Below are positions 23,450-25,834 of a stretch of DNA of 64,000 nt, piece by piece. Position 1 is the stretch's first letter. Each line of letters starts with the position of its first letter. The notes beneath the pieces are model-generated. The model was not told the DNA's origin and ran no database searches. It saw only the letters and a list, made by a program, of their open reading frames with translations. This DNA comes from a plasmid, in the NCBI RefSeq assembly GCF_054482525.1, contig NZ_JBTHVG010000003.1; one strand, 5' to 3'. Made by a program: the position numbers and the translations under genes.

Positions 23450-25834
23450 TTATACGACCTGCCTGACCATCCTCATCAGAAGGCGGTTTAACAGTCCTTT
23501 CGCTGTCGGGCGATTGCTATCGACATAGTAAAAACCTGTTTTGGTCGTACCGTGAGCACTGCTCAGCACCCTCAGTTCCCAGATAACGTCACGGATAACG
23601 CCGCCATTTTCTGGCTTAAGGCATTCAGATAAATGGCGCATGAAACGAGCTCTTACGGCACGGTAATAGCGGAACTCCTCTGGCTGGTTAGTATTTTCTT
23701 TCACCCGGAGTCGCTGGTTACACAGAGTTAGAACTGCATCCATCATTCCCGCCTTCAGCTTCGCCTGGATCGCACCTTGTTGCTGTTCCCTCTCACCTTC
23801 GAGTAACGTTAAGATTCTTTCTCCGAGTGCCGTCTTGTTGTGTACGTGCAACTGTACACAGGCAGCTACGCATGCCCAGAATCTGAACTTTTTTATCTGT
23901 CCACGCAATTTCCGGGCTACAACCTGACGGTATGCAGTATCGCTGAGTATTTTAAAACGCCGACTGGCAACCAGCTCTGGAAGCGACACTCTTTCGCCTA
24001 TCCCCAGGCGGGAAAAGGTTTGTCCCCGTTGTGCGAGACGATGATAGACAGCGCCCTTCCCTTTTGAAATTCGGACCGCGCCATAACGAAGAAGATACTG
24101 AGCAGCAGTCGTTGGAGTAAACTCACCGTCAGCGATGCTCTGGCGTAACCCGTCGTATTCATGCCAGATAATCCAGGACGCCGTATCTTCTTCAACAGTC
24201 AGCTCATCCTCTTCCTCGAATGCCACGACGACAGAACTGCTCTCTCCGGTCTTTAGGCTACGTGAAGCCCTGGGGTCAGCCTGCCCGTCAAAATAGGTCA
24301 TCAGCGGCAACGTATCAGTCAGTCCATCATAAGCTGTACCGAACCGGCCTCCGGGCAGTTTCATCCAGAGTGGAGCTGGCATTGGTGTACGGGCCACAGG
24401 CAGCATGTCAGGCTCATCCTCAAGAAGGTCCAGATCGGCCTCTTCCCAGACTCTGCGATAGATCTCAATTGCCCGAAACGGGCGAGGGTTGAAACAGTGC
24501 AACGACCAGAGGAAATCAACGTGGATCACGTTTGCTTCATGTACAAGCCGAAATTGTGGCTCAGCCATACGACGGTTATAAGCCGTATCGTCCACCTCGC
24601 CGGAAAGTAGCTTTCTGCGATGCTTTGCCGCACGTCTGGCTTCAACATAATCAAGGCTGCAACAGACATGAAAAAGACGTTCAGTCAGGGACGAAGAAAA
24701 GATATTGGGTTGAAGACGCACATACCCGCCTTCGAACACTTTACGACCGATATAATCCCGCAGGCTCCAGTCGTACTGGATCTTAGAAAGAAATCGCTGA
24801 AGACGACTTAGGCCTGCCTGATAACCATATTTCTCAGGGTCAGTGCGAAGGAGCGTTTCCATTGAATGGTCAACCCCTACGGCTGTGCAAAGCGAGCACC
24901 CATATCTAGCCCCACAAGCTGAGGTTCGCGTGGGTTTCTCCGGCGACCAGATACACTCTCCGGTGGCGTCTTTATAAAGCGTTGCCAGGCTGAAGTTATC
25001 CGGCATAAAGCTTGGTAAAGGGAAGCGGGATTCGGAACCACAGGCCATTAGAAAAGACCAGATGTCCTGAGTGCGCCACTCCTTTACTGGATAGAGTTCA
25101 CCACCGTGCTCAGTCAGGGTTACTTTCCTCGCCTGCCCTCCCATTTTGAGGATATTTCCGGCCCTTCGGGCACTTTCATCATCCCTGGAGCCCAGCATCA
25201 GGCATACCCTGCTTCGTACGGATGCCGGGGCGTTTTTTAGATAACGAGCTTTGGCCTTGCGCAGGGGGGCGATTTTGTAGTCGGTTGAGCACTGACGGGT
25301 TGAAGAATTAGTCCAGGTCGGAAGTCCACGTCCAGTCAGAATGCGGCCTACCCAGCTCTGCGTAAGAGACGGTTGGGCGACAAGGACTGTGACCGGTAGC
25401 TGGTGTTCAGCAATGAACATTCTAAGCTGGTTGAGAACCTGTGAAGCCTGATAGTGCATCTCAGGGTTTTCGATCAGCGTATCGGACATCTGAATGAAAT
25501 GATGTTCGCTGATATTTGTGCCGTTACGTACTGCCCTGATCAATGCCATCAGAAATAGGTGAAGAAGAGAATGGGAGTCTTTACCGCCACTGTATCCCAC
25601 GCACATCGTCCATCCGTCCGTAATAGCCTGATAAATAGCAGATGTGGCTGACGTGACCAGAGAAGAAAGACTCACAGTCTCCTTTTCATCGGTATAGTTC
25701 AGATCGGCATCGGTTGTCAGGGTCTCCCAAACATCAGCCCATTTATCATGTTTCAAAATGGCAGCATTAGCCGCCTCAGGAAAAATAACTTCTGAGGGTA
25801 ATTCAAGGAATGAGTCACTTTTTTCAATAAACAT
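23450..25834 (-). CDS. PP-loop ATPase, PAPS-reductase/DndC-like, with long C-terminal extension
   Basis: 'GYSGGKDSHSLL' PP-loop motif near aa 80 and Cys cluster 'CGARYGCSLC' near aa 310; ~400-aa C-terminal region with no motif I recognise. Confidence 0.6.
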   Translation of the reverse strand: MFIEKSDSFLELPSEVIFPEAANAAILKHDKWADVWETLTTDADLNYTDEKETVSLSSLVTSATSAIYQAITDGWTMCVGYSGGKDSHSLLHLFLMALIRAVRNGTNISEHHFIQMSDTLIENPEMHYQASQVLNQLRMFIAEHQLPVTVLVAQPSLTQSWVGRILTGRGLPTWTNSSTRQCSTDYKIAPLRKAKARYLKNAPASVRSRVCLMLGSRDDESARRAGNILKMGGQARKVTLTEHGGELYPVKEWRTQDIWSFLMACGSESRFPLPSFMPDNFSLATLYKDATGECIWSPEKPTRTSACGARYGCSLCTAVGVDHSMETLLRTDPEKYGYQAGLSRLQRFLSKIQYDWSLRDYIGRKVFEGGYVRLQPNIFSSSLTERLFHVCCSLDYVEARRAAKHRRKLLSGEVDDTAYNRRMAEPQFRLVHEANVIHVDFLWSLHCFNPRPFRAIEIYRRVWEEADLDLLEDEPDMLPVARTPMPAPLWMKLPGGRFGTAYDGLTDTLPLMTYFDGQADPRASRSLKTGESSSVVVAFEEEDELTVEEDTASWIIWHEYDGLRQSIADGEFTPTTAAQYLLRYGAVRISKGKGAVYHRLAQRGQTFSRLGIGERVSLPELVASRRFKILSDTAYRQVVARKLRGQIKKFRFWACVAACVQLHVHNKTALGERILTLLEGEREQQQGAIQAKLKAGMMDAVLTLCNQRLRVKENTNQPEEFRYYRAVRARFMRHLSECLKPENGGVIRDVIWELRVLSSAHGTTKTGFYYVDSNRPTAKGLLNRLLMRMVRQVV

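Follow-up and report, generated by a model that had tools for sequence, protein, structure and literature searches.

We asked what a DndC-like protein might be doing on a plasmid stretch that carries no other dnd gene. The stretch in question (64,000 nucleotides (nt) of contig NZ_JBTHVG010000003.1 in RefSeq assembly GCF_054482525.1, hereafter the window) holds, on its minus strand at 23450..25834, a gene for a 794-amino-acid (aa) protein that the original prediction had described as an orphan relative of DndC and of phosphoadenosine phosphosulfate (PAPS) reductases with an unassigned C-terminal half. We found that this gene very probably encodes a predicted-active, stand-alone paralog of DndC to which a novel module has been fused. 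The protein comprises an acidic N-terminal extension (residues 1-60), a DndC-like core (61-352), a DndC-like middle region (353-478), a family-specific module (the C-module, 479-640) and a basic tail (641-794); all coordinates given below for these segments refer to the minus strand.

The gene itself is straightforward to delimit. An uninterrupted open reading frame (ORF) of 794 codons, seen in both the ORF list and its translation, fills 23450..25834 with its stop codon at 23450-23452, while translation of the plus strand over the same interval is riddled with stops, and a Shine-Dalgarno-like AGGA can be read from the sequence at 25841..25844 on the minus strand, 6 nt upstream of the ATG. The complete coding sequence specifies a protein 100% identical to RefSeq WP_000469466.1, annotated 'phosphoadenosine phosphosulfate reductase family protein', and 100%-identical DNA occurs in hundreds of large plasmids of Escherichia, Salmonella, Enterobacter and their relatives. 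Since databases already hold it under this generic name, the gene is no new discovery. Set against a 76%-identical ortholog (locus L016), it shows purifying selection along the whole protein, with ratios of nonsynonymous to synonymous substitution rates (dN/dS) of 0.23 for residues 1-60, 0.045 for residues 61-352, 0.031 for residues 353-478 and 0.118 for residues 479-640; the tail (residues 641-794) is 54% identical between the two, with proportions of nonsynonymous and synonymous differences of 0.32 (pN) and 0.80 (pS), respectively, and dS saturated. Because the frame is uninterrupted, plasmid copies are identical and selection is purifying, we regard the gene as real and its coordinates as right; the coding signal of 23450..25834 is well above chance.

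To which branch of the PP-loop enzymes does the protein belong? DndC is the sulfurtransferase of DNA phosphorothioation, which introduces sulfur into the DNA backbone. It is described as a PP-loop ATP pyrophosphatase in which three Cys hold a 4Fe-4S centre, next to a distinctive Cys dyad with a putative role in sulfur relay (PMC10853773). We aligned a profile of 50 family members (identity to the window protein from 75% down to 25%) by hhalign with two genuine DndCs of 543 and 486 aa, encoded in dndBCDE operons annotated in Salmonella Infantis and on a Ruegeria plasmid, and both matched with a probability of 99.9-100% (E 1e-35 and 1e-38, 27-28% identity), over residues 70-473 for the Salmonella DndC and 72-392 for the other. 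The PADLOC models for DndC agreed (best 4e-38; model PDLC02661 aligns with residues 63-474), and the best named match in NCBIfam was likewise DndC (TIGR03183, residues 66-361, profile positions 7-289 of 447), whereas Pfam gave a weak match to PAPS_reduct (residues 78-264, E 3.7e-5). The DndC-like identity put forward in the original prediction is thus well founded, as is its estimate that the protein exceeds DndC by roughly 300 aa (the excess is 251 and 308 aa over the two genuine DndCs). By sequence comparison the window protein is a true DndC homolog, and the homology extends to about residue 473-475.

The residues expected of an active enzyme are in place. The core (24779..25654), recognised by Pfam, NCBIfam, PADLOC and Foldseek as a PP-loop ATP-pyrophosphatase domain with an iron-sulfur (Fe-S)/Cys region, contains the PP-loop YSGGKDS at residues 81-87 (SGGKDS, residues 82-87, 25574..25591), of which S82, G84, K85, D86 and S87 are invariant across the 50 homologs. 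Five Cys are equally invariant, namely C182 (nt 25289-25291) and, in the cluster GEC(294)...SAC(307)GARYGC(313)SLC(316) at 24887..24955, C294, C307, C313 and C316, and each of the five aligns with a Cys of Salmonella DndC by hhalign. The SGGKDS loop had been identified correctly from the outset; the accompanying Cys motif had been given as CxxxxCxxC and is actually C307-x5-C313-x2-C316 (Cx5CxxC). On these alignments, the gene is predicted to encode a member of the DndC branch of PP-loop ATP pyrophosphatases with its catalytic residues intact. The extension that precedes the core (25655..25834) has a net charge of -9, a predicted local distance difference test score (pLDDT) below 50 for residues 1-27, and two residues, D30 and W32, that are conserved only within the closer clade of ~800-aa proteins.

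What lies beyond the core is partly DndC and partly not. The region of residues 353-478 (24401..24778), a beta-hairpin followed by helices, is homologous to the middle of DndC (hhalign to residue 473; PDLC02661) and is found in all 50 family members. The C-terminal half, which had been called unassigned from about residue 330 onwards, therefore shrinks by some 120 DndC-homologous residues, and it is from about residue 479 to 794 that the protein has no match. This remainder falls into two parts. The C-module (23915..24400) is an alpha/beta segment specific to the family, with a conserved G585, a KGK and an R603-G-Q, and both blocks, 352-480 and 480-640, are present in all 50 aligned members. 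The tail (23453..23914) is specific to a clade; it is all-helical in the model and strongly basic (net charge +15, isoelectric point 10.4), and the corresponding last ~150 residues vary in length, with 150-218 aa in most proteins of ~800 aa, 47 aa in those of 669 aa and fewer than 85 aa in nearly all distant members.

We searched residues 342-794 against 1.84 billion representative proteins and recovered 227 relatives. In the full-length ones the conserved stretch (342 to about 640) begins at about residue 280-420 of a 560-906-aa protein, and it is for this reason that we consider the stretch to be always joined to the N-terminal domain; several shorter relatives are fragments. An AlphaFold2 model of the whole chain (pLDDT 87.7, predicted template modelling score (pTM) 0.81) likewise places the C-module in one body with the core. 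Foldseek comparison of this model with the PDB returned generic PP-loop enzymes only (the PAPS domain of flavin adenine dinucleotide (FAD) synthase, TtuA, adenosine phosphosulfate (APS) reductase, flavin mononucleotide (FMN) adenylyltransferase and CysD; template modelling score (TM-score) normalised to the query ~0.2, 13-18% identity), as did a profile search of PDB sequences. For residues 479-640 we found no counterpart in DndC, no recognisable DNA-binding fold and no structural relatives.

The original prediction had also entertained a split function. This found no support: naturally split family members, with N-domain and C-module encoded separately, were sought and rejected, as the sole apparent split copy examined in context (P0180/L031) is a single frame with an in-frame TGA, and the other apparent split, P0146, sits on a 1-kb contig and is uninformative. 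L031 (5197-6903 of contig Ga0378408_0004276, Joint Genome Institute (JGI) metagenome 3300037067) is a distant member of the family, broken by gene callers into two ORFs of 233 aa (PAPS_reduct) and 300 aa (C-module). Its TGA, at 5896-5898, adjoins the position of the invariant Cys294 ('ATGEG-TGA-VI' vs. 'ATGEC-IW') and, being seen on a single contig, could reflect a pseudogene, a sequencing error or a selenocysteine codon.

We then asked whether the protein has a partner. DndC is as a rule encoded together with the ABC ATPase DndD and with DndE, most often as dndBCDE with or without dndA. When DndA, DndB, DndD and DndE from two operons were run by tblastn against the 64-kb window, matches were at chance level only (none better than E 0.03), dndA, B, D and E are not annotated in the matching plasmids, and DndA, DndD and DndE partners were not found in 19 family loci. 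The orphan status originally proposed, without adjacent dndA, B, D or E, was thereby borne out in the window and extended to these loci. All-vs-all clustering of the 516 ORFs within 10 kb on either side of the gene in the 19 non-redundant loci left the DndC-like protein as the sole cluster common to all, with no neighbour cluster in more than three loci; a locus scan with a tighter family alignment comprised 11 loci. Given that the window lacks Dnd genes and that no neighbour recurs in the 19 loci, we take the family to be a stand-alone unit. Nor did we find SspA/B/C, DndFGH, SspE or BREX genes, or phosphorothioate (PT)-reader domains, in the window or neighbourhood, and no sulfate-assimilation genes (cysDN, cysIJ etc.) were found in the window or any locus examined.

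A pairing of ParB-like with PAPS-reductase-like proteins, of the DndB/DndC and IbrB/IbrA type, had been put forward, and three ParB-like ORFs do exist in the window as stated (7205..8389, 58095..59258 and 62469..63524, all minus). They lie ~15, 32 and 37 kb from the gene, respectively, and for that reason none can be called adjacent. Across the 19 loci, custom hidden Markov models detected a DndB-family gene once and a ParB-like gene twice, which contradicts the pairing as a family-wide trait. In the 669-aa lineage, a DGQHR/DndB-like gene stands two genes upstream and the ParB/PAPS-reductase pairing is present; it holds for one sub-lineage at most. The two genes immediately upstream of the DndC-like gene, co-directional with it (149 aa, 26007..26456; 263 aa, 26508..27299; both minus), were considered as a hidden DndB/ParB-type partner and rejected, as BLASTP showed them to resemble neither the genes compared from the 669-aa lineage (its DndB and its small ORF) nor the gene that lies upstream in locus L007. 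Neither upstream protein matched PADLOC, NCBIfam or PHROG, the 263-aa protein had no Pfam match either, and the pair accompanies the DndC-like gene only in the IncHI lineage.

How, then, is the family distributed? A tblastn search identified 2,796 plasmid records with a homolog, 2,159 of them predicted to be conjugative, from host genera that include Escherichia, Salmonella, Klebsiella, Enterobacter, Citrobacter, Pseudomonas, Vibrio and Burkholderia. The gene itself is matched at ≥95% identity by 991 PLSDB records (898 predicted conjugative). One carrier of WP_000469466.1, pSTM6-275, has its replicon typed as IncHI2A/MOBH/MPF_F, and the window is an IncHI2-type conjugative plasmid. A phage collection yielded just eight matching records: one, a 128-kb Salmonella record with a near-full-length copy at 47%, is a misfiled plasmid-like record, and the other seven match the N-terminal domain only, at 24-30% identity. 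The DndC-like family is carried almost exclusively by plasmids, mostly conjugative ones.

Within the window, which begins at the end of a mobI-mobH-traD operon and whose first ORFs encode an S49 peptidase and a NERD protein, the gene belongs to a long minus-strand array that points back toward the mobI/mobH operon (as seen in pM160133_p1); 26 of the neighbouring ORFs are co-directional with it and eight are opposite. Most neighbours in IncHI2 plasmids are small proteins without a named family, those with a name being an N6_N4 methyltransferase, an HNH endonuclease, DUF6012, DUF3085, DUF957 and Hok. The N6_N4 DNA methyltransferase (29018..30268, minus; 416 aa, with a weakly Mrr_N-like N-terminus) lies 3 kb upstream of the gene, and a second methyltransferase (56156..57847, minus; 563 aa; phrog_6263, 1e-111) sits directly beside the ParB-like gene at 58095..59258, a tighter spacing than any between ParB-like and DndC-like genes in the window. 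Both methyltransferases look like orphans and share the minus-strand array of the DndC-like gene. The DNA-related context anticipated by the original prediction is thus apparent, the gene standing amid DNA methyltransferases on a conjugative plasmid. The HNH endonuclease (21808..22374, minus; 188 aa), which has weak similarity to retron/PtuB-type HNH effectors, lies four genes (~1.1 kb) downstream and is kept beside the gene in the 76%-identical locus L016 and not elsewhere.

The intergenic region upstream of the gene spans 172 nt and is AT-rich, and no promoter could be assigned in it, as consensus matches were no commoner there than in shuffled sequence; a scan for promoters and terminators to delimit the transcription unit likewise gave matches at the frequency of shuffled sequence. 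Sequences that resemble a weak promoter (27340-27313) and a terminator hairpin (27487-27475) stand above the upstream gene pair, such matches occurring at chance frequency. Elsewhere in the window, an IS3-family transposase (283 aa, with a 173-aa ORF upstream of it) is inserted in the backbone array at 13819..15188 (minus), and a 372-aa ORF at 12249..13367 (plus) probably belongs to another insertion sequence, the matching position in pSTM6-275 carrying IS150 and IS421. Three further ORFs of ~800 aa (35272..37689, minus; 41283..43703, plus; 49585..52041, minus) were noted, in the region of which two proteins bear an Ig-like (Big_3) domain annotation in matching plasmids; they appear to resemble the IncHI Ig-like proteins that are reportedly needed for conjugation.

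On other plasmids the company changes. An IncC-like backbone (its Inc type being inferred from gene content) carries the homolog with a C5 methylase, an N6 methyltransferase, DUF3085 and a Toprim primase; on the IncC-like contig with an 817-aa homolog (L004), a Pfam Csf3 gene, of a type IV CRISPR-associated family, was seen at 21887-22454, ~10 kb downstream. On a Burkholderia MOBF/MPF_F plasmid and a Pseudomonas MOBP megaplasmid the homolog lies amid small hypothetical genes, and on other elements with Rad52 and a primase, VRR-NUC, DprA and a 3,730-aa ART-PolyVal polyvalent protein. The Citrobacter MPF_F plasmid p51929 carries the 669-aa form in a 25-kb co-directional array that includes a DGQHR/DndB-like protein, Fic, JAB/RadC, an N6 methylase, an annotated antirestriction protein, two DUF1380, DUF4942 and toxin-antitoxin pairs. 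Co-directional clustering with orphan methyltransferases, anti-restriction, recombination and toxin-antitoxin genes was accordingly observed in the window, the IncC-like locus and p51929.

Comparison with known systems helps to place the family. With DndC it shares ~400 homologous residues, the SGGKDS PP-loop, the five aligned Cys and the helical region after the Cys cluster; it differs in lacking a DndD/DndE/DndA/DndB operon, in possessing an additional module of ~160 residues and, in the clade of the window protein, a basic tail of ~150 residues, and in being plasmid-borne amid establishment-type genes rather than in a defence island. SspD and BrxP are, like DndC, PP-loop enzymes of the DndC type proposed to install sulfur in DNA. 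The BrxP model of PADLOC matched weakly (4.7e-6, 23 bits, residues 68-264), and no SspD model was among the PADLOC matches of the window protein. BrxP carries extra domains on its PP-loop core (a Mog1p/PsbP-like domain and DUF4007) and reportedly lacks the Cys dyad of DndC (PMC12839542); the window protein similarly adds domains of its own to the core, but unlike BrxP it keeps the five DndC-aligned Cys, and its module is a different one. A separate PADLOC model, PDLC03333 ('Type II methyltransferase'), matched residues 65-334 (7.5e-23, profile positions 35-301 of 544), which suggests a PP-loop domain of the DndC type at the N-terminus of some methyltransferase-type proteins.

Phages and other mobile elements, too, have stand-alone genes for PP-loop proteins similar to DndC, their PAPS reductases (PHROG 424, 12882 and 2302; Aca-regulated), which lie in variable regions rich in anti-defence genes, and ParB-linked proteins of the IbrA/YbdN type are further PAPS-reductase-like genes of mobile elements. 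The PHROG matches of the window protein span only residues ~60-350, and the C-module is absent from the phage-collection matches except in the misfiled record. A 2026 preprint describes PAPS reductases in Aca-regulated anti-defence operons of phages, and cites work in which a phage PAPS reductase aids Dnd evasion. Samuel et al. (Nature 635:186, 2024; PMC11541004) report a 73-member family, number 645, that is 'phosphoadenosine phosphosulfate reductase' by both sequence and fold, is enriched in the leading regions of plasmids and is listed without an assigned function under 'Other unknown leading families'. Family 645 may be the same as the family of the window protein. Our literature searches found no paper on this plasmid gene family, its architecture or its independence from Dnd machinery. 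The tRNA thiolases TtuA and TtcA share the PP-loop fold and an Fe-S cluster and give weak fold and sequence matches; they offer a mechanistic analogy, in which ATP adenylates the target and the cluster then delivers sulfur, but the relationship is at superfamily level only (E ~1e-3), and Cys pattern, length and genomic context differ. CysH, finally, is a single-domain protein of ~250 aa that consists of a PAPS_reduct domain with a C-terminal catalytic Cys motif, ECGLH, and no motif of that type occurs in the 794-aa translation. The window protein is not SspD, BrxP or CysH; nor is it a DndC equivalog, which both the curated score (given below) and the missing operon speak against. The family is best regarded as a separate, stand-alone clade within the DndC branch, associated with plasmids and marked by the fused module.

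We reasoned that an enzyme of this anatomy and in this company could modify nucleic acid with sulfur on its own and so aid plasmid establishment, a reading that we hold tentatively, its chances falling a little short of even. ATP would adenylate a phosphate or carbonyl oxygen on the nucleic acid, as in DndC and PP-loop chemistry generally, and sulfur would then be delivered via the Cys/Fe-S centre, the host cysteine desulfurase IscS being the putative source; IscS can substitute for DndA (PMC10853773). The C-module and the basic tail would supply the DNA binding otherwise given by DndD and DndE, yielding a one-protein enzyme. Since its neighbours act on incoming DNA (methyltransferases, anti-restriction genes, primases and recombination genes), the enzyme may tag or shield the DNA of its own plasmid once this has reached a new host, as an establishment or anti-restriction function comparable to that of the orphan methyltransferases beside it. 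The fully specified version, in which a single polypeptide with its own substrate module in place of DndD/DndE uses host IscS and ATP to place phosphorothioate or a thiolated base on plasmid DNA while the plasmid is entering by conjugation or shortly afterwards, we regard as doubtful.

Several observations weigh against such a sulfur-modifying role. The TIGR03183 score (117.6 bits) does not reach the curated equivalog cut-off for DndC (290.4) and is so far under it that the chemistry may differ from that of DndC. The functional core that the Dnd system cannot do without is considered to be DndD and DndE (PMC10853773), for which reason phosphorothioate formation by a DndC paralog on its own would have no precedent. 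The C-module is near-neutral in charge, with R603 as its sole family-wide basic residue, so that DNA binding by it is a guess, and the basic tail, being absent from most members, cannot be a general substrate-binding device. In pM160133_p1 the gene lies ~35 kb, or several tens of genes, from mobI/mobH, further out than the leading window of Samuel et al., which is said to cover ~30 ORFs. Moreover, 331 of the 991 matching records (about one third of the IncHI2 records) have no contiguous copy covering ≥80% of the gene, from which it follows that the gene is dispensable for maintenance and conditionally useful at best. Damaged IncHI2 copies (PLSDB hits H1, H2 and H39-H43; P0009, P0029 and P0030) show ISVsa5 insertions or N-terminal truncations, the truncated ones keeping residues 312-794 under the annotation 'hypothetical protein', and they suggest frequent loss of function. 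A literature search also found no experimental study of the window family.

Four other explanations have to be set against a self-sufficient modifier. The protein could work by interference with host phosphorothioate immunity (Dnd, Ssp or BREX type 4), either by plugging into or out-competing the host DndC/SspD machinery or by hijacking host DndD/E to mark the plasmid as self. It is after all a close structural mimic of DndC surrounded by anti-restriction-type genes, and dndBCDE does occur in a genome of Salmonella, one of the host genera of these plasmids; however, a pure decoy would not need an invariant ATP loop and five invariant Cys, the family resides on plasmids of many genera while Dnd systems are sporadically distributed (PMC10853773), and a family-wide extra module without a DndC counterpart argues for substrate handling of its own, which together leave interference unlikely. 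Improbable, too, is an RNA- or small-molecule-directed thiolase or adenylyltransferase (e.g. one that thiolates tRNA in the manner of TtcA/TtuA) that reprograms host translation or metabolism. The substrate need not be DNA, the C-module has no recognisable DNA-binding fold, and both TtuA (Foldseek, E 1.6e-3) and TtcA (NCBIfam, a weak match at 0.0016) are among the matches; the similarity to DndC is nevertheless more than 30 orders of magnitude stronger than that to any tRNA enzyme, takes in the aligned Cys and the DndC middle region, and is accompanied by neighbours that are DNA-directed (methyltransferases, primases, recombinases and nucleases).

The matches to defence-system models (DndC and BrxP) raise the converse idea that the plasmid carries a defence or competition module, in which a linked nuclease would attack phages or rival plasmids that lack the mark set by the DndC-like enzyme on resident DNA. 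Modules for Dnd modification often have nucleases of various kinds linked to them (PMC10853773), and the HNH endonuclease at 21808..22374, in the same orientation ~1.1 kb downstream and conserved with the gene in L016, would be one candidate; yet outside the IncHI lineage it does not accompany the family, no neighbour cluster exceeds three of the 19 loci, DndFGH, SspE and PT-reader domains were not found in the window, and the surrounding genes resemble anti-defence and establishment functions rather than defence, so that we think this quite improbable. An ordinary metabolic enzyme, whether an assimilatory PAPS/APS reductase (CysH-like) or an FAD-synthetase-type protein, is what the RefSeq name, the Pfam PAPS_reduct match (E 3.7e-5) and the best PDB fold matches (the FAD synthase PAPS domain and APS reductase) would imply at face value. 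This possibility is effectively refuted and was rejected, since those matches cover only the generic PP-loop fold (TM-score ~0.2, 13-18% identity), the 794 aa amount to ~3 times the matched APS-reductase and FAD-synthase PAPS-domain chains and ~4.5 times the 175-position PAPS_reduct model, the Cys pattern aligns with DndC, no sulfate-assimilation neighbours appear in the 19 loci, and the family is plasmid-restricted; no full-length match to a metabolic PAPS reductase or a tRNA-modifying enzyme was found, in agreement with the original prediction.

The stand-alone DndC paralog thus matters beyond this one plasmid. About 2,800 sequenced plasmids carry homologs, among them IncHI2 backbones bearing mcr-1 and other last-line resistance genes, under a current database name that is generic and misleading, and the conserved module of 160 residues without structural relatives is a concrete target for structural work. 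If the protein should instead interfere with Dnd/Ssp systems or modify RNA, it would still represent an unexplored interaction between plasmid and host. If it is a self-contained DNA modifier, it would constitute a new kind of plasmid self-protection and the simplest known route to sulfur in DNA, would offer insight into DndC chemistry without DndD/E, which is still debated, and might become a tool for site- or strand-specific DNA thiolation. A single-protein modifier of this kind would also help to explain how very large plasmids cross restriction barriers between genera, as an undescribed epigenetic cloak for major groups of multidrug-resistance plasmids, namely IncHI2 plasmids, the megaplasmids of Pseudomonas and Burkholderia and, apparently, IncHI1 and IncC-like plasmids.

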